Part shown: one piece after another, positions 1-7,586 of the stretch
Layout of the letters: each line of letters opens with the position of its first letter
Numbering within the stretch: position 1 is the first letter of the stretch
Virus genome (UHGV): UHGV-1434521
DNA: 7,586 bases
Source of the DNA: a virus
Reading direction: 5' to 3' (one strand)
Made by a program: the position numbers and the translations under genes
The notes under the pieces: generated by a model
What the model was told of the DNA's origin: nothing
Database searches by the model: none
The model's input: the letters and a program-made list of their open reading frames with translations, nothing else

Positions 1-8
1 CGGTGCCG

Positions 9-242
9 TCATTGGTCACAGACCGTAATCCACTGGCCCAGGACGTCTTTCAGGCAATGTTGGCATAAATCCAGTTTTAAGCGATTACTGTCACCAAAAA
101 TTGAACCGTATCCAGCTAAGTGATTAACAGACAGAAACTCATTGAACTCAATGTCATCTACCACCGTCTTCGCATGGCGACCACAGCGATCGCAGGTCTT
201 CGCACATAACATTACAGTATCGCTGGATGTGAAAAATTGCAT
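9..242 (-). CDS. Hypothetical small protein (77 aa) with two Cys-x2-Cys pairs, zinc-ribbon-like
   Basis: Complete ORF with stop at 9-11. ATG at 242-240 is preceded on the minus strand by GAGGAG (revcomp of 248-253) with a 5-nt spacer. Translation has C17-x2-C20 and C60-x2-C63, about 39 residues apart. No family recognised by eye. Confidence 0.55.
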   Translation of the reverse strand: MQFFTSSDTVMLCAKTCDRCGRHAKTVVDDIEFNEFLSVNHLAGYGSIFGDSNRLKLDLCQHCLKDVLGQWITVCDQ

Positions 243-313
243 TTTATCTCCTCGTAATGCTGCCGCGCCGAATCAGCAATAACGCTAAAAAAACAGAATT
301 GTTCGGCTTGGCC

Positions 314-358
314 AACCCCTGACACTAACAAAAGCAAGTTTTGTTATTGTCCGGGGTT
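314..358. other. Imperfect inverted repeat / hairpin (20-bp arms, 2 mismatches, 5-nt loop gcaag) immediately 3' of the 102-aa ORF
   Basis: aacccctgacactaacaaaa (314-333) pairs with ttttgttattgtccggggtt (339-358), 18/20 complementary. It sits directly after the stop codon at 360-362. The T-run on the transcribed strand is about 20 nt away rather than adjacent, so it is not a textbook intrinsic terminator. Confidence 0.4.
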
Positions 359-359
359 A

Positions 360-668
360 TCATATAAACCAATAGACCGTCCTTACGCCATTCTGGTTAT
401 CAATAACATAGCCGCATTGTTTCCTTAAAAATTCTTCTGCTAAATCAATGGCTTTTACAGAAATCTCATAAGAAGGAAGTAAAGTGTATCCTTTCCCTTC
501 ACTGGCAGCTGCTTTGATCGCATCCAGAGTATTATCAATCAGTAACAGAGCAAGTGATGCTTCATTTACCTGAGCCGAAGAACTTCTGGCTGCAAGTGTC
601 ATTGTTTTTGCTTCTTCCGCTGTAATCGTTCGTTCTGCCAGAGCAGATAAAATCCCATAAGAATCCAT
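360..668 (-). CDS. Hypothetical protein (102 aa), unknown function, accessory gene downstream of gIV
   Basis: Complete ORF co-directional with the phage genes. ATG at 668-666 with a weak SD-like GGGG 6 nt upstream. Predicted mostly helical with a C-terminal hydrophobic strand (VRTVYWFI). No family recognised by eye. Confidence 0.5.
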   Translation of the reverse strand: MDSYGILSALAERTITAEEAKTMTLAARSSSAQVNEASLALLLIDNTLDAIKAAASEGKGYTLLPSYEISVKAIDLAEEFLRKQCGYVIDNQNGVRTVYWFI

Positions 669-690
669 TAGTTACCCCAATCAATAATGT

Positions 691-746
691 CCATTTGATG
701 GATAGCGAGCAGGGCTCACGCACCTACCCGCTATCCATCAAAGTGG
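691..746 (-). other. Long hairpin overlapping the gIV stop codon; candidate gIV terminator and/or packaging-signal-like hairpin
   Basis: ccatttgatggatagcg (691-707) pairs with cgctatccatcaaagtgg (729-746): 14 bp perfect plus 3 bp with a 1-nt bulge, 21-nt loop. In Ff phages the first hairpin after gIV is both the gIV terminator and the packaging signal; the position here is equivalent. Confidence 0.45.
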
Positions 747-2003
747 ACGAATGATATGTGCTGTAAGCAAAATATACATAATACGCTGTTCATTGCTGTC
801 TGCCTTGCTACTGAAAATCCAGCCTATAAGAGGAATTTTACTTATAACTGGAACTGAACGCTCGGCATTGCTAAACGATGAATCGATAAGCCCCCCCAAT
901 AACAACGTCTGACCATCCTTAATCTGGACTGTCGTCTGAATCTGGCGCTGATTAGTAATAATATCGGATGCCTGATCATCATTGCTGATTGAATCAGCGC
1001 GAGTGTCGATAGTCAGAACTAGTTGCCCGTTACCCATGACAACAGGCGTTACCTTGAGAGAAACGCCAACATCATGACGCTCGATAGTCTGAAACGGATT
1101 ATTTACCCCGGCAGATTCGCCCGTTACCTTTCCGGTGATAAACGGCACATTCTTACCTACGGAAATGTAACCAGTCTGACCAGACTGAGTAAGAATACGC
1201 GGCGTTGAAATCACCTTAGAGCGTGAATTACTCTGGACAGCACGCAGAGACAGCGCCAACACGTTACCATCAAAAATACCAAAAGAACCGCCCGCCGTAG
1301 AAAGAGCACTACCCAGTGCAGAAGTATTAAAGCCCCCCGCAACCTTATGACCGGATGCAGAACCTGCCGCAAACGATAAATCAACGCCATCAGACAAGCT
1401 GGTTTCAAACATCAGCGACTGAATGAGAACCTGATCGCGGGCAACATCCACAGAATTGATAAAATCGGACAGAACCGGCAGCAGCTCGTCAGGCGCAGAA
1501 ACAATCAGCGAGTTATTGCCTGGATAATCCACGACATTACCACCACCATTAGAATCAAGATAAATTTTAATCAGTTGCTGAACATCGGACGATCTAACTT
1601 TTGTCAGCTTAAAATTTCTGACCGTAAGCGCCACAGGTACTGGCTGGTAAGATGGCTCAGAAGGAAAAGTATCATAAGACTGGTTATCAGAATCATCGGA
1701 ATCCGAAACCATCTGTGAAGGTAATTTAGACGGCAAAGAGACTACCGCAGGATTGCCAGAAAGCATGACAAAACCGTTAGCATTCAGAACAGACTTAAAG
1801 AAATCATCAATATTTGCTGGATTAACATCAGCATTAAATACGGTTACGTTTCCTTTAATATCAGGATTAACAATAACAGGCTTGCCAGTTTTTGAAGAAT
1901 ACCACTGAACAAATGAGCGAACAGATGAATTATTTAAATTAACAGTTTCAGCAGAAACGCAGAATGAATAGGCAAATAAAAAAGCAACAATAACAGAGCG
2001 CAT
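738..2003 (-). CDS. IV: Filamentous phage secretin pIV (outer-membrane export channel), 421 aa precursor
   Basis: Translation reads along M13 pIV by eye for most of its length (e.g. NVPFITGKVTGESAGVNNPFQTIER, LLLGGL, SKIPLIG). The start was moved from the track's 2096 to the ATG at 2003, which gives the signal peptide MRSVIVAFLFAYSFCVSA and has AGGAG upstream. Stop TGA at 740-738. Confidence 0.93.
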   Translation of the reverse strand: MRSVIVAFLFAYSFCVSAETVNLNNSSVRSFVQWYSSKTGKPVIVNPDIKGNVTVFNADVNPANIDDFFKSVLNANGFVMLSGNPAVVSLPSKLPSQMVSDSDDSDNQSYDTFPSEPSYQPVPVALTVRNFKLTKVRSSDVQQLIKIYLDSNGGGNVVDYPGNNSLIVSAPDELLPVLSDFINSVDVARDQVLIQSLMFETSLSDGVDLSFAAGSASGHKVAGGFNTSALGSALSTAGGSFGIFDGNVLALSLRAVQSNSRSKVISTPRILTQSGQTGYISVGKNVPFITGKVTGESAGVNNPFQTIERHDVGVSLKVTPVVMGNGQLVLTIDTRADSISNDDQASDIITNQRQIQTTVQIKDGQTLLLGGLIDSSFSNAERSVPVISKIPLIGWIFSSKADSNEQRIMYILLTAHIIRPL

Positions 2004-2010
2004 AATAATA

Positions 2011-2385
2011 TTACTCCTGACAGGTAACAGTCTGTAAATAACGGCCTTTTCTAATAACAACACGACAGGCATCTTTAATATCAACGGAATAACCATCTTT
2101 AATCAAATCAAAATACTGATATTTCATACCTTTTGCATCAACAAACGTAACGGAAACGTCAAAGCCAAGTTGTGAAAAAGAATTAATAGAAAGTCGGGGT
2201 AAGTCACTGGACGAATCAGGCGTTACCGCCCTCGCCTGTTCAGCATAAGCAGATTTAATAGCTGAGATTTCATCAACATTCTTTCCAGACTGGAGCCAGA
2301 AACCAAACGCAAGCCCCAGCGCCAAAAAAGAAAGCATTAATATAAGACGGTTCGATTTGCGAAAATAAATTTTAGTGAGGCGCAT
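2011..2385 (-). CDS. XI: pXI, in-frame internal-start product of gene I (C-terminal 124 aa)
   Basis: In-frame Met241 (MRLTKIYFRK) is at the same position as the M13 pXI start (MKLTKIYLKK). ATG at 2385-2383 with GAGGA about 13 nt upstream. Inferred by homology of position only. Confidence 0.55.
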   Translation of the reverse strand: MRLTKIYFRKSNRLILMLSFLALGLAFGFWLQSGKNVDEISAIKSAYAEQARAVTPDSSSDLPRLSINSFSQLGFDVSVTFVDAKGMKYQYFDLIKDGYSVDIKDACRVVIRKGRYLQTVTCQE

Positions 2386-3105
2386 ATAATAATTAAATCC
2401 TCTGTGAACAGAAAATTGACCGTGCGTGATAAATGGTGGCAAAAGCGAAAATGCGCCATGAGGATAATTATCTGTGAACGCTTGTTTGGTATTGTAAGCA
2501 GAATAAAGAGATTTTCCTGTATATATCCATTTATCAACAGTGATTGAATTAACATTATCACCATATTTGACAATGCCAAAGTGTACCTTTGGTAAAGAAA
2601 ATCTCGCCCCTGAAACCAAATTCATAATGGAGCCAACAAAAGGAATGTTTAATTTATCTGAACGGCGACAATAAACAACATGCTCAGCAAGTGCCAGACG
2701 AGCTTGCTTATCCATTATCGAAATATCCTGAATCAAAAATATAATATCCCAGCCTAATTTTCTGGCATGTAAAAACCAGTCAATAACAGGTTGTCTGTCT
2801 TTATCACCCCATGAGCGGGAATTAAACCAAGTACCACATTCATCAAGTACAAGGAGGCCATTACGGGATTCATCGTAAGATGCATTCCCAATACCAATAG
2901 CAAGTAAATCATTTAATGAAGGCTTGTCAGGAATGCGAATAACGCGCGTTTTTTTCGCATAACGCCCAACCATAGGCATATTATGCAATTTAAGATCAAG
3001 ATTAGTGGCAACAGGACAACCCTTAGCAAGTCTTTCCTGTATTCTGGAAACACTAACAAGTGTCTTGCCTGAGCCTAATTTGCCTGTTACTACATAAACC
3101 GCCAT
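2011..3105 (-). CDS. I: Filamentous phage assembly ATPase pI (Zot-like), 364 aa
   Basis: N-terminus MAVYVVTGKLGSGKTLVS carries Walker A GKLGSGKT. Further blocks match M13 pI as recalled (LLVLDECGTWFNSRSW, IDWFLHARKLGWDIIFL, AEHVVYCRR, YNTKQAF). ATG at 3105-3103 directly follows the gVI stop. Confidence 0.95.
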   Translation of the reverse strand: MAVYVVTGKLGSGKTLVSVSRIQERLAKGCPVATNLDLKLHNMPMVGRYAKKTRVIRIPDKPSLNDLLAIGIGNASYDESRNGLLVLDECGTWFNSRSWGDKDRQPVIDWFLHARKLGWDIIFLIQDISIMDKQARLALAEHVVYCRRSDKLNIPFVGSIMNLVSGARFSLPKVHFGIVKYGDNVNSITVDKWIYTGKSLYSAYNTKQAFTDNYPHGAFSLLPPFITHGQFSVHRGFNYYMRLTKIYFRKSNRLILMLSFLALGLAFGFWLQSGKNVDEISAIKSAYAEQARAVTPDSSSDLPRLSINSFSQLGFDVSVTFVDAKGMKYQYFDLIKDGYSVDIKDACRVVIRKGRYLQTVTCQE

Positions 3106-3447
3106 TTAAATCACCCTGTTTGCATAATCAAGAAATTTTTGTTTTAAATCGAAAACAAAAACACTGATACGAGTAACCATAATAACGTTAACACACGCCT
3201 GAAAATGGTCAGGCAATACAGACGCCATTAAATGGGAGAAATCAGCAGGTAAACCGTTATACATGACCTCAGCAAGGTACTGCATTAAAAGCGTAACAGT
3301 TGTTGTAATTAATGCGACCAATGCAAAGGCGATTAATCCTGTTCTGGTAGCAAGTCGAGCTAAAAAACTCGCCACATAGCCAATAAACAAAGGAACAAGA
3401 CCAATAAGAAAACGCAACAATGCAGGAATACCTAATAATAAAGGCAT
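3106..3447 (-). CDS. VI: Minor coat protein pVI, 113 aa
   Basis: [13 protein letters not shown]... parallels M13 pVI MPVLLGIPLLLRF, with a conserved C-terminal VFDLKQK-like block. ATG at 3447-3445 overlaps the gIII stop (TGATG). The track's GTG at 3450 adds one residue and is less likely. Confidence 0.9.
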   Translation of the reverse strand: MPLLLGIPALLRFLIGLVPLFIGYVASFLARLATRTGLIAFALVALITTTVTLLMQYLAEVMYNGLPADFSHLMASVLPDHFQACVNVIMVTRISVFVFDLKQKFLDYANRVI

Positions 3448-4712
3448 CACTCACCCCCTTTGCGAAGCAATGAAGTTAAAGAAGTAAAGACATACCAGAA
3501 CGTAAGGCAATAAAAAACCCATGAAAGAACATCTTTAATAGTCAGTAATTTATCGCAACCAATATCAATCTGATAAACCTCTCCGGGAAATATAATAAAA
3601 TCAGAGCAGCCGTTACCATTGGGTAAATTAGGCAGCATAGCACCTTTATTTAAAAATGCTTCCCATAAAGCACCGTGAGAATCCTTTTCAATTCCCAATT
3701 CAGAATCAGCTAAAGTAGAAGCGCCATCTAATTCAGAGTCGCCCTTTCCATAACGAGAATCACCACCTGAAGGGTCAGCAAAACGGCCAGCCCCCCGCGT
3801 AAGATTGTTAATGGAATCGTCAAGACGATTTATATTATTCCTGGTTTGTTCATCGGCATTTTTTTTATCATCTGATGAAGTGTCTTTCTCCGTTAATTTA
3901 TCATGAATATCGCTGGCTATTTTGGGTGAAGCACCTTCGATCGCAGACTGAATATCACCTTTAGAAAGACTGGAACCACTAGAGCCACCGCCAGAACTAC
4001 CGCCACCGGACTCACCACCGCCAGACTCACCACCACCGGACTCACCACCGCCAGACTCACCACCGCTGGACTCACCACCGCCAGACTCACCACCACCATT
4101 TTGGGGGGTTGAGGGTTTATCAGAGGGGTCAGCTACAGCACCTGTAGGCTTCCATGTTGCAGCGCAAACAGTACCATCACCCTGACAAACAATGACACCA
4201 GTAGCCTCATATTCACAGCCGTTATAGTAGATATAGCGACCACCATCATATGAATCAACATTATTAAATACACCTTCTTCTGGCGGCTTCGCTTCACAAA
4301 TTTCTTCTGGTGTCGGGTCAGTAGGTTTTTCATCAGGAACAGAACGCTGAATATTACCAACAATATAAGCCGTTAAAGACCAATATTTATCCTTCTGCCC
4401 TGGTGAATCGCTGTAAGTACAATCGCCAGTAAAAACAAGACGGAATTCAGAATCAGGCCAGATACCCTCATAAGTTGGTTTAATCCGAGTAAATACACTC
4501 TGAGCACTGGATTTAGCACCCTGACAAGCGGAGGCCTGCATAGCAGCATCAATATAGTAAACCGTTATCTTAGAGCCATCCTGATTGGTTATTTGCTTAC
4601 TTTCAGCGTAGGCAGAACTTTGATAAGTGGATTTAGTAATGCTTTCCCATGACTCAGCATGTGAAAAAGGAGAAATGAGGACAGCGGAAAGAATTAATAT
4701 TTTCCTTCTCAT
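3447..4712 (-). CDS. III: Minor coat / adsorption protein pIII, 421 aa precursor
   Basis: Start moved to ATG 4712-4710 ([19 protein letters not shown] signal peptide); the track's upstream extension overlaps gVIII. Contains a block resembling the Ff TolA-binding N1 domain ([23 protein letters not shown]), a (GGGES)n linker, and a C-terminal anchor (GCDKLL...[14 protein letters not shown]) like M13 pIII. Confidence 0.9.
3972..4097 (-). repeat. Tandem 15-bp repeats inside gIII encoding the Gly-rich (GGGES)n linker
   Basis: Units ggactcaccaccgcc / agactcaccaccacc are repeated about 8 times on the plus strand and translate on the minus strand to [40 protein letters not shown]. Confidence 0.9.
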
Positions 4713-4730
4713 AGTAACCCGCTTTAATAA

Positions 4731-4749
4731 AGGGGCAACGAGTGCCCCT
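4731..4749 (-). terminator. Candidate rho-independent terminator between gVIII and gIII
   Basis: GC-rich 7-bp stem (aggggca / tgcccct) with 5-nt loop, followed on the transcribed strand by UUAUUAAAG. Its position matches the strong terminator after gene VIII in Ff phages. Confidence 0.55.
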
Positions 4750-4758
4750 GAGTGAAAT

Positions 4759-5001
4759 TCAAACCGCTTTTGAAGAGAATTTTTTGAAAATACGAATGGC
4801 AAGCCCAGCGCCAACCACAGCAACAACAACAGGCCATACTTTACCAATGAGATCATTTGCCTGAGTCAACAAAGCATCCATTGCCTGACCTGCATAATCA
4901 GTACCACCTGTAGCGCCTTCAGCCGCAAAAGAACTTGCAGAAATAAAAAGCGCAGTTGAAGCCAGAGCAATTTTATATTTAACAGTAGACAGAATTTTCA
5001 T
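4759..5001 (-). CDS. VIII: Major coat protein pVIII precursor (80 aa; predicted mature 54 aa)
   Basis: Signal peptide ends SFA|AEG as in M13. It has an acidic N-terminus, a hydrophobic core, and the basic tail [10 protein letters not shown], which matches the IKe/M13 C-terminus ([10 protein letters not shown] / LFKKFTSKAS) as recalled. GGAG RBS 8 nt upstream of ATG 5001-4999. Confidence 0.95.
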
Positions 5002-5020
5002 AGGAATAACTCCATTAAGG

Positions 5021-5116
5021 TTACATTAATCGGTCAGAAAATGATTTAAATGAACCGACCGCATAGAAAAGGGCAAAACCAAAGGTATAAGCCCCGAAGA
5101 AATAAACGATATACAT
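5021..5116 (-). CDS. IX: Minor coat protein pIX (31 aa)
   Basis: MYIVYFFGAYTFGFALFYAVGSFKSFSDRLM is a small hydrophobic protein ending FSDRLM (compare M13 pIX ...FTRLM). Its start overlaps the gVII stop (TAATG). The track merged it into a 74-aa ORF. Confidence 0.8.
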   Translation of the reverse strand: MYIVYFFGAYTFGFALFYAVGSFKSFSDRLM

Positions 5117-5202
5117 TAACGAAAGACCCCCGCAGTAATCGCGCCGAGGCCAAAAGAAATAACGATGCCAGACGCTATCAAAATTTGAATAACATCGTCC
5201 AT
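5116..5202 (-). CDS. VII: Minor coat protein pVII (28 aa)
   Basis: Manual translation MDDVIQILIASGIVISFGLGAITAGVFR parallels M13 pVII (...IQISVVLCFALGIIAGGQR). AAGG RBS 7 nt upstream. Not in the supplied track because it is under 60 aa. Confidence 0.85.
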   Translation of the reverse strand: MDDVIQILIASGIVISFGLGAITAGVFR

Positions 5203-5204
5203 AT

Positions 5205-5522
5205 TTAACCTTTGATCTCTGCGATGCCACCATCGGAAGAAACATTATAAGTTACACCTTCCCTACCCTCCATTGACCACGCACGGACATAGACAGGAAT
5301 TTGAACTAATTTCCCAATGAAAGCATTCGCCTGGTTCATTAGACCTGCGTTAACGAGAGCCTGAGAAACTCGAATAATAATTTGATCCTGCTTTGTACCA
5401 CCAAAACCATCAGGTATTTCAAGGCCAATACCAATTTCATTATAATAGCCCTGACCATTAACTTTATTACGTTGGCGGGCTCCCAACATTTTACCCTTAA
5501 CGAAAAGACCATAATTAGACAT
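5205..5522 (-). CDS. Gene-V-position protein (105 aa); putative ssDNA-binding/replication-switch protein by synteny only
   Basis: Fills the gap between gII and gVII exactly, with a strong AAGGAA RBS 6 nt upstream. The sequence (Gly-rich, GFGG) does not resemble M13 gVp as I recall it, so the function is assigned by position, not homology. Confidence 0.6.
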   Translation of the reverse strand: MSNYGLFVKGKMLGARQRNKVNGQGYYNEIGIGLEIPDGFGGTKQDQIIIRVSQALVNAGLMNQANAFIGKLVQIPVYVRAWSMEGREGVTYNVSSDGGIAEIKG

Positions 5523-5533
5523 ATTACTTTCCT

Positions 5534-5848
5534 TTAATGCCAGCTACTGGCGTGCGAAATACGGTTGTAATCGAAAATAAAACCTTTCTCATAAATCCAT
5601 AAGGGGATTTCCGCTGGCTTGGCTTCCAGCGTTCTTATTAGCGGAACAACGTTATTAGAGTCTGGTGAATCACAATAGAAATTAATATCGATACCGAACG
5701 AAAGCAATTCTCTTCTATGGCGATAAAAAGTGTTATGAGGTAACATTTCTTTCATGTTAGCCCCTTGTTTCCAAAGTAAATAAGTTGACTGTATTTTTCT
5801 TGGCAGTTTCGTTATTTTTTCATCACTTAAAATAGCATTCTGATTCAT
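5534..5848 (-). CDS. X: pX, in-frame internal-start product of gene II (C-terminal 104 aa)
   Basis: In-frame ATG at 5848-5846 (MNQNAILSDE...) is preceded by GGGAG with a 7-nt spacer, and parallels the M13 pX start (MNIYDDSAVLD). The alternative in-frame ATG at 5896 lacks an SD. Confidence 0.5.
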   Translation of the reverse strand: MNQNAILSDEKITKLPRKIQSTYLLWKQGANMKEMLPHNTFYRHRRELLSFGIDINFYCDSPDSNNVVPLIRTLEAKPAEIPLWIYEKGFIFDYNRISHASSWH

Positions 5849-6628
5849 TTCTATTCTCCCTACATATTCAGAGAATAATTGACGTGGTGTTTTCATATTC
5901 CAGTTAGCGCCAAGCGTTAAATTTAAATCAATAAGCTCAGTTGTTCTTAATGTTAATTCAATACGTAATTTATCTTTCGTCCAGTCCAGTAACCCGGCTC
6001 GTACAAACTCTTCGGCTATCTGGTGCCCTTTTTTACCAGAAACGTGTTCATCATATTTTGAATAAAATTTCAGACTCCATCGACGGGAGTTTTTACCTAA
6101 ATAAACTGTACCGCCTTTCCCACATGCGCGACCATGGCGTGTTTTAGCTTTAAATTCGGCGGCATAAAGCCATGATCTGACATTTTCCAGCGTAGATAAT
6201 GAATACATGTAATTAATGTCAACACGTGAAATTTTATACTGACCTGCCATAACGGCTTTATAAGACGCTAAATCATGAGGAATATTCAATAAGGATAAAA
6301 TCCTGGCATAGACCGTCAACATGAGCCCTTGTATATCATCCGACCCAACAACAGAATGCCCCTGCAGAAACTTGGAAGGATTACCATCAATGTACAAATG
6401 TGTCGCTTTACCTTCGCCATTAGATCCTATCGATCGTACTTTCATCGTTGCTTCATGCGAACCGCGAACAGTCAGTCGCTTAACGGTTTCCCACTCAATT
6501 GCACCGTCAGCATCAACGCTGACAACACTCCCCGCCGGAAGCGGTTTGTGTGTGCAAGGGAAAATCCCGGTAAGCCAATCGATCACGAATAAATCCTCAA
6601 AATTGCAAAAATGACGACTTACTAACAC
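5534..6628 (-). CDS. II: Rolling-circle replication initiator pII (Phage_CRI / gene II family), 364 aa
   Basis: The C-terminal block NNVVPLIRTL matches M13 pII NNVVPLVRFI, and an internal block LQGHSVVGSDD matches LQGHNVFGTTD. It is first in the gene order. The apparent start is GTG at 6628-6626 with no obvious SD, so the start assignment is uncertain. Confidence 0.88.
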   Translation of the reverse strand: MLVSRHFCNFEDLFVIDWLTGIFPCTHKPLPAGSVVSVDADGAIEWETVKRLTVRGSHEATMKVRSIGSNGEGKATHLYIDGNPSKFLQGHSVVGSDDIQGLMLTVYARILSLLNIPHDLASYKAVMAGQYKISRVDINYMYSLSTLENVRSWLYAAEFKAKTRHGRACGKGGTVYLGKNSRRWSLKFYSKYDEHVSGKKGHQIAEEFVRAGLLDWTKDKLRIELTLRTTELIDLNLTLGANWNMKTPRQLFSEYVGRIEMNQNAILSDEKITKLPRKIQSTYLLWKQGANMKEMLPHNTFYRHRRELLSFGIDINFYCDSPDSNNVVPLIRTLEAKPAEIPLWIYEKGFIFDYNRISHASSWH

Positions 6629-6755
6629 ATGAGTTCAGTAGTTCATTAGTGTTTTAACATTACACCAGTGAGCTAGTGAGTTCAAGAGGCTTGGATGATA
6701 TGAGTTCATGAGCATGTATACTCACTTCAAATATTGCATTGAACGAGCGTAAAAA
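6629..6755. promoter_or_regulatory. Divergent intergenic control region between gII and the RHH gene, with direct repeats
   Basis: TGAGTTCA at 6630-6637, 6677-6684 and 6701-6708; AGTGAG at 6667-6672 and 6675-6680. Candidate leftward gII promoter: -35 TTGAAC (6685-6680), 17-nt spacer, -10 TAATGT (6662-6657). Candidate rightward -10 TATACT (6717-6722). Confidence 0.45.
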
Positions 6756-6938
6756 ATGGCAAAGCGCACGACTTATAACGTGACGGAAGAAAGAAAAATG
6801 AAACTAGAACGACTGGCTATAAATGCCAGTGTAAAACTAGGAAAAACAATTACATGGACAGAGATTTTAGGTTATCTGATTGATAACTACTCTAAAGATG
6901 CAGCAGAAGATCTCATGTCTGCCAAACAAAAGGATTAA
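6756..6938 (+). CDS. Small ribbon-helix-helix-like DNA-binding protein (60 aa); candidate repressor or antitoxin
   Basis: MAKRTTYNVTEERKMKLERLAINASVKLGKTITWTEILGYLIDNY fits a strand / helix / G-x-T turn / helix RHH pattern (CopG/Arc-like). It is divergently transcribed from gII. Weak RBS. Confidence 0.55.
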   Translation: MAKRTTYNVTEERKMKLERLAINASVKLGKTITWTEILGYLIDNYSKDAAEDLMSAKQKD

Positions 6939-6957
6939 GTACCACGAATGGTACAAA

Positions 6958-6995
6958 CGTGCAGTATTACCTACACTGCACGTTCTTTTCTGTGC
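6958..6995 (+). terminator. Candidate rho-independent terminator after the RHH gene
   Basis: 8-bp perfect stem cgtgcagt (6958-6965) / actgcacg (6975-6982) with 9-nt loop, followed by TTCTTTTCTGTG. It is preceded by a smaller hairpin gtacca-cgaa-tggtac (6939-6954). Confidence 0.6.
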
Positions 6996-7090
6996 AAATT
7001 ATAAGCAGCAAGGACGTTAACGAAAAGAAAACTAGTATCGACATTCGAAATGTTAACTATTATTAACAAATAGAGTAATGGAAGAATATA

Positions 7091-7586
7091 ATGATCACTA
7101 TAGAAGAAGCAACATCGGTCCATGAATATTTAACAAATTACTATCAAAACTCTGATGATCCTATCTCTCCTCCGGGAATAAAAAACATAGAGCTTTTAGA
7201 GTCTGCCATAGCAAGACCTTTTATGACCATGAACAGAAAGGATGTCTATCCAGATGATTTAGATAAAGCCGCAGCTCTATTTCATGGTGTCATATCCAAC
7301 CACTGTTTCCATAATGGTAATAAAAGAACAGCACTTCTACTAACCATGTGCTTTTTAGACCGAGCTGGATATTGGCTGGATAAGTGTGATGACCTGCAAC
7401 TCTTTGAATTTACAAGAGGTGTTGCGGCACATGAGATATGTGAAAATAGAATTGATGAAATAAAAACAATCAAGGCATTTTTCCGAAGTAATTCACGGAA
7501 GAAAAAAATCACAGATGAACAATTGAGTTTTATTGCATTAAGCAGGCATCTAACCAACGCAGGTTTCAATATAGAAGACGATGGTG
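7091..7586 (+). CDS. Doc/Fic-family (death-on-curing-like) toxin-domain protein, 3'-truncated by the window edge (at least 165 aa)
   Basis: Manual translation from ATG 7091: MITIEEATSVHEYLTNYYQNSDDPISPPGIKNIELLESAIARPFMTMNRKDVYPDDLDKAAALFHGVISNHCFHNGNKRTALLLTMCFLDRAGYWL... It contains HCFHNGNKR, matching the Doc-type motif HxFx(D/N)(G/A)NKR, and the N-terminal region parallels P1 Doc as recalled. No stop before the window end, which is why it is absent from the ORF track. Confidence 0.8.
   Translation, partial: MITIEEATSVHEYLTNYYQNSDDPISPPGIKNIELLESAIARPFMTMNRKDVYPDDLDKAAALFHGVISNHCFHNGNKRTALLLTMCFLDRAGYWLDKCDDLQLFEFTRGVAAHEICENRIDEIKTIKAFFRSNSRKKKITDEQLSFIALSRHLTNAGFNIEDDG

Follow-up and report, generated by a model that had tools for sequence, protein, structure and literature searches.

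Gene content and identity of the element

The window analysed here, a stretch of 7,586 nucleotides (nt) given as UHGV virus genome UHGV-1434521, contains all ten genes of an Ff-type filamentous phage (II, X, V, VII, IX, VIII, III, VI, I and IV), intact, on the minus strand and in Ff order. Two small open reading frames (ORFs) follow gIV, and a gene for a 60-amino-acid (aa) protein and a Doc-like gene are divergent from gII; gene list and order are those given by the initial annotation and now have Pfam support. We conclude with high confidence that the window is one genome unit, minus 373 bp, of a UPΦ virus, a temperate, Lineavirus-like filamentous phage of Enterobacterales. This class of element is already published, with a size of 7.5–8.4 kb and accessory ORFs described as h1–h5 (PMC7307601), and these ORFs are annotated in RefSeq. 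The initial annotation had named a known phage of about 7–9 kb with annotated accessory ORFs as the finding that would overturn its proposal, and such a phage is what the UPΦ viruses are; its reasoning from the raw sequence was sound, although the finding itself is no discovery. The residual novelty is the map of cis elements, the definition of a cargo slot and an orphan Doc/HicA-like cargo gene.

A circular Salmonella enterica record of 7,938 bp with 12 annotated genes (PNUSAS210186 'plasmid unnamed2') is 99.3% identical across the whole window, which corresponds to this circle minus 373 bp (positions 2004–2376 of the record). By megablast, the window was matched in 62 of 5,426 complete Escherichia coli genomes, near full length in 47 of these 62 (95–99.6% identity), and 131 of the 135 matching places in E. 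coli were chromosomal, with a median of two places per genome. The match to deposited phages was limited to a 190-bp stretch of gIV at 80% identity (IKe and the Erwinia PEar phages; megablast). UPφ901 is a 7,560-bp prophage present as tandem repeats at dif, and its nearest relatives are I2-2 and IKe (Shapiro & Putonti, Virus Evolution 2020, PMC7307601). The primers specific to UPφ901 match the window at 4113–4132 (forward, 0 mismatches) and 4563–4582 (reverse, 2 mismatches), predicting a gIII amplicon of ~470 bp. For the UPΦ group, the same authors reported gII and gV to be >85% identical to those of YpfΦ, with much lower values for the remaining genes, found variation concentrated in the GGGES repeats of pIII and proposed placement in the genus Lineavirus tentatively (PMC7307601). 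Over five genera, UPΦ copies keep 98–99% identity, and the same phage can be found in more than one genus, which indicates recent horizontal spread.

Among 50,697 phage records, the structural genes have their best matches in IKe and I2-2, at 50–73% aa identity; at the nucleotide level, megablast against IKe aligns only 2% of the window, at 80% identity. Gene IV (738–2003) encodes the outer-membrane secretin for virion export (Pfam Secretin, N0 and Secretin_N), and pIV is 72% identical to that of IKe and 73% to that of I2-2, with only 27% to YpfΦ. Gene I (2011–3105) encodes the assembly ATPase of the Zot family (Pfam Zot, 5.8e-41; 66% IKe, 65% I2-2), and gene VI (3106–3447) a minor coat protein (Pfam DUF5455; 52–53% identity to IKe and I2-2). 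The attachment protein, encoded by gene III (3447–4712; Pfam G3P_pilus-bind and Phage_Coat_A), has Gly-rich GGGES repeats and shares 50% identity with IKe pIII and 55% with that of I2-2 across the N-terminal 195 residues. The major coat protein is encoded by gene VIII (4759–5001; Pfam Phage_coatGP8; 60% identity to IKe), and gene VII (5116–5202), annotated 'tail virion protein G7P-2', encodes a minor coat protein with 70% identity to pVII of IKe and I2-2. Between them, at 5021–5116 and missing from the RefSeq annotation, lies a probable gene IX for a 31-aa hydrophobic minor coat protein (translation MYIVYFFGAYTFGFALFYAVGSFKSFSDRLM), assigned from its position and its TGATG overlap with gVII, both as in IKe.

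The replication module has other affinities. Gene II (5534–6586) encodes the rolling-circle replication initiator (Pfam Phage_CRI and G2P_X_C), and pII is 86% identical to that of YpfΦ/CUS-1, 56–57% to that of I2-2 and 24–28%, over partial alignments, to that of IKe. Gene X (5534–5848) is in frame within gII and has an internal start with a GGGAG ribosome-binding sequence upstream. Gene V (5205–5522) encodes a single-stranded DNA (ssDNA)-binding protein of the YpfΦ/I2-2 type (Pfam PF17426, 3e-51), with 94% identity to YpfΦ and 40% to I2-2; there is no match to IKe pV because this protein belongs to PF17426, another family. The label 'textbook Ff/IKe' thus holds for gene order and the morphogenesis genes and fails for pII and pV. 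The starts of gII, gIII and gIV were set by annotated homologues and not by the longest ORFs: gII begins with the GTG at 6586 and not at 6628, gIV at the annotated start and not at 2096, and the longer gIII ORF to 4856 is an upstream in-frame extension.

Several records call for comment on their own account. IS1A is inserted in gII of a chromosomal copy in E. coli MB51, and ISEcp1, an element that frequently mobilises blaCTX-M genes, lies within the prophage in E. coli AZ184 and 1434. At the start of the E. coli EC5502 record (NZ_CP092647, positions 1–50000 examined), at least six tandem UPΦ copies occur with nearly all genes annotated as frameshifted, which probably reflects an error-rich long-read assembly and not real decay. 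A contig binned as 'Candidatus Nanosynbacter' (JARKOR010000214) carries a 99% identical UPΦ prophage, and one binned as 'Aerococcus' encodes a pII with 86% identity; both contigs, from metagenome-assembled genomes, are most likely mis-binned enterobacterial sequence. The RefSeq record of E. coli UM146 (NC_017632) has a run of N at 4440–4670 of the locus, in hipA and immediately left of attL, as would be expected if the assembly of the prophage junction were collapsed or mixed.

Integration at dif and dispersed candidate cis elements

In E. coli, copies with 99% identity are arranged head to tail at the chromosomal dif, beside hipBA; in strain KFu015, the array follows directly after hipBA and its unit measures 7,974 bp. 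An exact E. coli dif lies directly to the right of the prophage in UM146, which has the same backbone and a different cargo. The left prophage junction is attP (the attL hybrid site) and the right one an intact dif, and ATTGGTGCGCATAA-TGTACGACTCG-TTATGTTGAAA is present in the circular form as well as at each junction between units. In this attP, the XerC arm is identical to that of dif, the first 4 nt of the 11-nt spacer are as in dif, and the XerD arm is close to that of dif. A second, inverted dif-like site lies ~60 nt downstream of the first. Together, attP1 (GGTGCGCATAA-TGTACGACTCG-TTATGTTGAAA) and attP2 (GGTTCGCACAA-TGACG-TTATGCTAAAG), at 2032–2130 of the Salmonella circle, are predicted to form a forked hairpin of ~100 nt in the (+) ssDNA (−33.7 kcal/mol, z = −5.6), and the attP region is 97% identical to the attP of YpfΦ. 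A search for the 28-nt dif allowing ≤3 mismatches gave no hit in the window, the Salmonella circle or the locus L002; attP, with its 11-nt spacer, was read directly.

No integrase or recombinase is found among the 12 annotated genes of the 7,938-bp unit. We infer from the junction sequences, which are consistent with XerC-side strand exchange, that the phage integrates through the host XerCD in the manner of CTXφ and YpfΦ. YpfΦ has the same inverted XerC/XerD pair, leaves a regenerated dif and occurs in arrays of two to four copies (Derbise & Carniel, PMC4266046). The tandem arrays at dif and the Salmonella circle bear out the proposal that the window represents a temperate, cargo-carrying element of the IKe lineage with a CTXφ-like divergent regulator. 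As a separate observation, a motif containing CCAGTTCC occurs ~15–25 nt upstream of the XerC arm at the phage end and in the flanks of the Pectobacterium dif and attL, with the variants aacgCCAGTTCCCgCC, acggCCAGTTCCCaCC and acggCCAGTTCCtgCg (L001, 1996–2032; L002, 5600–5660; L015, 6840–6880 and 5545–5575, where L001 is the Salmonella circle and L015 the Pectobacterium locus); the E. coli chromosomal flank lacks it.

The Salmonella record is typed as a non-mobilizable plasmid, and the element could accordingly be taken for a small plasmid with extra genes or for a classical, non-integrating Lineavirus of the IKe/I2-2 type, the chromosomal copies being irrelevant. The morphogenesis genes, at 50–73% identity to IKe and I2-2, would fit, and I2-2 has the same type of pII and the same origin hairpin. 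However, nearly all of the E. coli places are chromosomal (131 of 135, as given above), the copies examined sit at dif with exact attL and dif junctions, I2-2 has no dif-like site, and a circle is what is expected of the replicative form of a temperate inovirus. We give this explanation very little credence.

The location beside hipBA and dif had also suggested that the element is CUS-1/YpfΦ, the dif-integrating prophage of E. coli O18:K1:H7 and Yersinia pestis. Integration site, attP hairpin (97%), pII (86%), pV (94%), origin hairpin and a two-hairpin non-coding element are shared with it, and the UPΦ prophage of UM146 even has the three cargo ORFs of CUS-1. Gene-by-gene tblastn nevertheless rules the identity out: the morphogenesis block is unrelated (pIV 27%, the others undetected). 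The regulator has 60 aa here, as against a 148-aa helix-turn-helix (HTH) protein, and CUS-1 and YpfΦ are mutually 99% identical over 7.1 kb, whereas alignment with the window is confined to attP, gII/gV, the origin and one non-coding element. Given also that CUS-1 proper forms a separate set of E. coli matches, we regard this identification as extremely improbable and retain the assignment to the UPΦ viruses.

The intergenic region of Ff phages had been described as replaced by accessory genes in this element. Instead, its cis elements survive, scattered among the inserted genes, and the attP hairpin lies in the 373 bp outside the window. Directly 3' of gIV, a hairpin at 699–737 (minus strand; ssDNA fold −14.3 kcal/mol, z = −4.3) is a candidate packaging (morphogenetic) signal and terminator. 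It matches the stem-loop of the IKe morphogenetic signal over 22–25 nt at 88–91% and the annotated I2-2 morphogenetic signal over 30 nt at 87%, and by this analogy the 39-nt hairpin is likely to be the packaging signal. A two-hairpin non-coding element at 262–358 (minus strand; ssDNA fold z = −4.1) lies in the gap between the two small ORFs. It is 81–87% conserved in YpfΦ and in prophages of Klebsiella spallanzanii, Brenneria and Phytobacter despite different flanking ORFs, and its consensus fold retains the stems, with one compensatory pair. We consider it a candidate minus-strand (complementary-strand) origin.

The strongest candidate plus-strand origin, with its nick site, is at 6939–6985 (minus strand), which is also the boundary of the cargo cassette. 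It comprises a hairpin with a 12-bp stem (6956–6984) and a second small hairpin (6939–6954). The 33-mer GAACGTGCAGTGTAGGTAATACTGCACGTTTGT (6953–6985), which closely follows the 60-aa gene, shows little or no variation at any locus with this pII family, and the origin hairpin of the non-integrating I2-2 is 94% identical across 34 nt. The small hairpin shows two compensatory pairs between phages with the 60-aa regulator and those with the HTH regulator. An IKe-type origin was considered and rejected, as no IKe intergenic sequence besides the packaging hairpin is present in the element. Rfam returned no RNA family in the window.

The gene divergent from gII (6756–6938, plus strand; phrog_2503, 3.6e-34) encodes the 60-aa regulator candidate and occupies the position of rstR in CTXφ; it is presumably the UPΦ gene h3. 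Among the reverse-oriented ORFs beside dif, h3 was reported from 221 of 229 genomes, as against only 56–57 for h4 and h5, with 'other ORFs in these positions' elsewhere (PMC7307601). The 60-aa protein is found on at least 1,000 contigs, all from Enterobacterales, and is 100% identical in UPΦ copies with different cargo. It has no match in Pfam, NCBIfam or PADLOC. An AlphaFold2 monomer (pLDDT 81) shows an extended N-terminus followed by two helices, compatible with a ribbon-helix-helix (RHH) protein; the best Foldseek E-value for this model was 1.3, and the RHH antitoxins AtaR and FitA appeared only at E-values of 3–8. The earlier label 'RHH', with no Pfam match and no significant fold match, is thus not confirmed.

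Between the two divergent genes, the promoter/operator region (6587–6755) contains three GAACTCA repeats and one GAACTA as candidate operators, and no stable ssDNA fold was found in it. The repeats accompany the 60-aa regulator wherever it is found (UM146, Brenneria, Phytobacter) and are absent in CUS-1 and YpfΦ, which have the HTH regulator despite a pII that is 86% identical. Because they are confined to genomes with the 60-aa regulator, the repeats are probably its operators, and the two would form an exchangeable immunity module like rstR/ig-2 of CTXφ. In the 'non-coding' intergenic region of I2-2 (NC_001332, 2720–2918, minus strand), we observed an unannotated homologue of the 60-aa regulator, likewise divergent from gII. 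It is split over two frames, with 43% identity across residues 4–38 and the C-terminal part in a second ORF, and is either a pseudogene or the product of a frameshift error in the 1992 sequence. Its presence there is a hint that this replication module had the regulator ancestrally.

The two ORFs after gIV, both on the minus strand, take the place of h1 and h2, which were described as two novel genes located where I2-2, IKe and M13 are intergenic (PMC7307601). ORF102 (102 aa, 360–668) belongs to phrog_4115 (2e-68, function unknown) and has no Pfam, NCBIfam or PADLOC family. ORF77 (77 aa, 9–242; phrog_5435, 4.5e-46, function unknown) is the last gene before attP and is annotated as hypothetical protein WP_001159442.1, with a 79% identical homologue in a Phytobacter prophage. 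It has two CxxC pairs with the spacing of the 'zinc ribbon' proposed for it, for which Pfam gave sub-threshold matches only. To judge from position and published description, ORF102 and ORF77 probably correspond to h1 and h2.

The cargo slot and its Doc/HicA-like gene

Homology between Doc-carrying and other UPΦ copies stops at 7000–7011 and at the end of attP2, and the cargo cassette is therefore exactly the segment from attP to the origin. Here it holds the Doc gene alone, with no antitoxin gene. The first 165 of its 244 codons lie in the window (7091–7586, plus strand), the remainder being cut off by the window end. A cargo-specific leader (7000–7090, plus strand) precedes the gene and includes the palindrome TTGTTAACTATTATTAACAA (within 7049–7092). 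A sigma-70-like site (11/12) is present at 7063–7092, with a −10 box that overlaps the ATG of the Doc gene; the palindrome could be an operator; alternatively, the promoter could be a false call.

The 244-aa cargo protein is a fusion of a Doc domain and a HicA-like domain. The first domain has the Doc fold with the HxFx(D/N)(A/G)NKR motif, here HCFHNGNKR, and the protein passes TIGR01550 and has its own PHROG family. The second has the double-stranded RNA-binding-domain-like alpha-beta-beta-beta-alpha fold seen in HicA mRNA-interferase toxins, with no match to HicA in Pfam or NCBIfam. A HicA nuclease activity of this C-terminal domain was considered and rejected, as the beta-sheet contains no His conserved among 30 homologues. 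The inhibitory motif of class III Fic proteins, SxxxE(G/N), was likewise discarded: it occurs once here (SSLTEN) and is not conserved in the family. The 60-aa ORF could be ruled out as the antitoxin of Doc: copies that lack Doc carry it with 100% identity, and the operators proposed for it are oriented towards gII. The only PADLOC matches were partial ones to Fic domains of candidate systems (PDC-S23, for example), and a defence system could not be called.

The Doc variant was found in 5 of the 5,426 E. coli genomes, always within this prophage, and also in Salmonella, Enterobacter and, at 86% identity, Yersinia enterocolitica; its protein cluster consists mostly of Salmonella entries, with one member on 249 contigs. 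An ~8-kb prophage related to I2-2/IKe and carrying a Zot-like gene was reported in 2026 from an emergent Salmonella Hadar outbreak lineage (PMC12868874), and this 'prophage 1' of REPTDK01 may be the Doc-carrying UPΦ variant described here.

The cargo family is widespread and conserved across its full length, and it also occurs outside UPΦ phages. In Klebsiella (L017–L019, 5001–5729), a P4-like satellite has a solitary 242-aa homologue with 50% identity between psu and int; a homologue in Acinetobacter is located at a prophage edge. Pectobacterium aroidearum CP084023 has a phage-less element of ~1.3 kb at the chromosomal dif (5514–6850 of the locus), consisting of a complete attP forked hairpin, a Doc/HicA-like gene with 71% identity and 460 bp; it has no origin and ends at an intact dif. 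The sequence left of its attL repeats that left of dif, which suggests remnants of stacked elements. No Phd-like gene was found beside the Doc homologues of the Pectobacterium, Klebsiella and Acinetobacter examined.

Exchange of the slot is suggested by UM146, whose UPΦ prophage has the same three cargo ORFs as CUS-1, at 95% nt identity. The sequence of the UM146 prophage is identical to that of CUS-1 over the cargo and as far as the origin-hairpin loop, and to that of the window beginning with GGTAATACTGCACGTTTGT, which places the crossover interval inside the origin hairpin. We discarded the loop nucleotide (A/T) as a marker of cargo type, as EC5502 and the contig binned as 'Candidatus Nanosynbacter' have non-Doc cargo with 'A'; the crossover is given as an interval only. 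A mixed UPΦ/CUS-1 array in EC5502 (16 places) was also sought, and the array proved homogeneous. The pattern in UM146 is suggestive of hybrid genomes arising by origin-to-origin synthesis in a mixed array, as for CTXφ. The UPΦ authors had raised hybridisation in general terms only (PMC7307601).

Most likely, the Doc-kinase/HicA-like protein would stop translation and thereby stabilise carriage of the phage or exclude competing phages. Toxin or kinase modules that control phage production and defence are known from Pf inoviruses. A wider proposal, possible if rather doubtful, is that the attP–origin segment is a dedicated exchangeable cassette of UPΦ, CUS-1/YpfΦ and the mini-elements, swapped when rolling-circle synthesis begins at one element's origin and stops at that of the neighbour downstream in a mixed tandem array, and that the Doc/HicA-like fusion is a self-contained single-gene toxin acting in anti-phage defence or superinfection exclusion, or in addiction. 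It would account for the presence of this family between psu and int in P4-like satellites, a position for variable cargo that is reportedly a hotspot for anti-phage systems. If true, a single-gene defence or addiction factor as cargo would help to explain how small integrase-less phages persist and trade accessory genes.

Proposed life cycle and comparison with known systems

Taken together, the map suggests the following cycle. The phage, having no integrase, would use the host XerCD as CTXφ and YpfΦ do, with XerC exchanging one strand pair between the folded attP and dif; dif would be regenerated, so that further copies could stack. In the array, pII is predicted to nick the conserved hairpin downstream of the regulator gene, within GT(A/T)GGTAATACTGC of the 6956–6984 hairpin, and rolling-circle synthesis would copy the genes until it reaches the next origin. 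The complementary strand would be primed on the two-hairpin element that separates ORF102 from ORF77, the hairpin after gIV would serve as the packaging signal, and the 60-aa protein, acting at the GAACTCA repeats, would repress gII at its divergent promoter, a role that rstR has in CTXφ.

Several points weigh against this picture. Virions of UPφ901 were detected only by PCR of DNase-treated filtrates, and neither new infection nor plaques were obtained (PMC7307601). The attP site falls in the 373 bp outside the window, and the junction evidence comes from the 99% identical copies. The functions given to the cis elements (origin, packaging signal, minus-origin and operators) derive from conservation, folding and analogy, and the 60-aa protein could not be demonstrated to be an RHH or other DNA-binding protein. 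With a Doc-like protein and no identifiable antitoxin, the evidence falls short of a classical addiction role. The hybrid pattern could equally have come from ordinary homologous recombination in the conserved attP and origin sequences, which is indistinguishable here from synthesis in a mixed array.

Some of the same observations would fit a domesticated or defective prophage that produces no infectious virions and is retained for its cargo, the Doc-like protein or h1/h2. UPφ901 filtrates infected none of the strains tested, the I2-2 host included, and a C. koseri lysogen released no phage (PMC7307601); several E. coli copies are interrupted by IS1 or ISEcp1, and the Pectobacterium mini-element has kept attP and Doc without a phage. 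On the other hand, all ten phage genes are intact in the window, a free circular form exists, lysogens release DNase-protected phage DNA (PMC7307601), and the 98–99% identity over five genera, with identical phages in different genera, speaks for horizontal spread in recent times. We consider a defective prophage unlikely and favour a temperate UPΦ virus. The analysis refines the map of these phages, whose group is spreading among clinical strains of E. coli, Salmonella, Klebsiella and Citrobacter, and proposes where attP, the origins, the packaging signal and the operators lie.

Among known systems, the Phd/Doc type II toxin–antitoxin system of P1 differs from the cargo described here, which has no Phd-like gene, a protein twice as long and a HicA-like second domain. 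The UPΦ viruses agree with the window in gene order, tandem integration at dif, the module pattern, the two genes after gIV, the reverse-oriented ORFs at dif, the host range (E. coli, Salmonella and others), the variable GGGES repeats of pIII and the primer matches; the difference is the single Doc-family gene beside dif in place of h4/h5. I2-2 (Lineavirus I22, NC_001332) resembles the element in both modules, at the identities given above for pI, pIV, pVI, pVII, pII and pV, and in its origin hairpin and morphogenetic signal, whereas it lacks the dif-like site, the h1/h2 genes and the cargo and is described as non-integrating (PMC7307601). IKe (Lineavirus IKe, NC_002014) shares the gene order, the morphogenesis proteins from pVII and pVIII to pIII, pVI, pI and pIV and, in part, the packaging hairpin; its replication module is unrelated (pII partial, pV undetectable), its origin sequence is not found in the element, and it has no attP, regulator or cargo.

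YpfΦ (unit of 8,742 bp in Y. pestis) and CUS-1 (compared from E. coli SF-173) resemble the element in integrating at dif via inverted XerC and XerD sites, in forming tandem arrays and in having a divergent regulator beside gII, variable ORFs by attL and two small ORFs by attR (Gonzalez 2002; Derbise 2007; PMC4266046). They also have close relatives of pII, pV, attP, the origin-like hairpin and one non-coding element. Their morphogenesis module, 148-aa HTH regulator and genes after gIV are unrelated to those described here. CTXφ of Vibrio cholerae, a CTX-type integrative mobile element exploiting Xer (IMEX), offers a parallel in organisation: it also has no integrase, a forked ssDNA attP hairpin made of two inverted dif-like sites whose spacers differ in length (11 and 5 nt here), a gene for a small repressor that diverges from the replication gene, cargo at the genome edge and tandem arrays that are probably needed for genome production. 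No sequence relationship extends beyond the Zot-family pI, and CTXφ differs in its cargo and in having no secretin of its own. By sequence comparison, the phage is thus a mosaic, with an IKe/I2-2-like morphogenesis module (50–73% aa identity), an I2-2/YpfΦ-like gII/gV and origin, and a YpfΦ-like attP.

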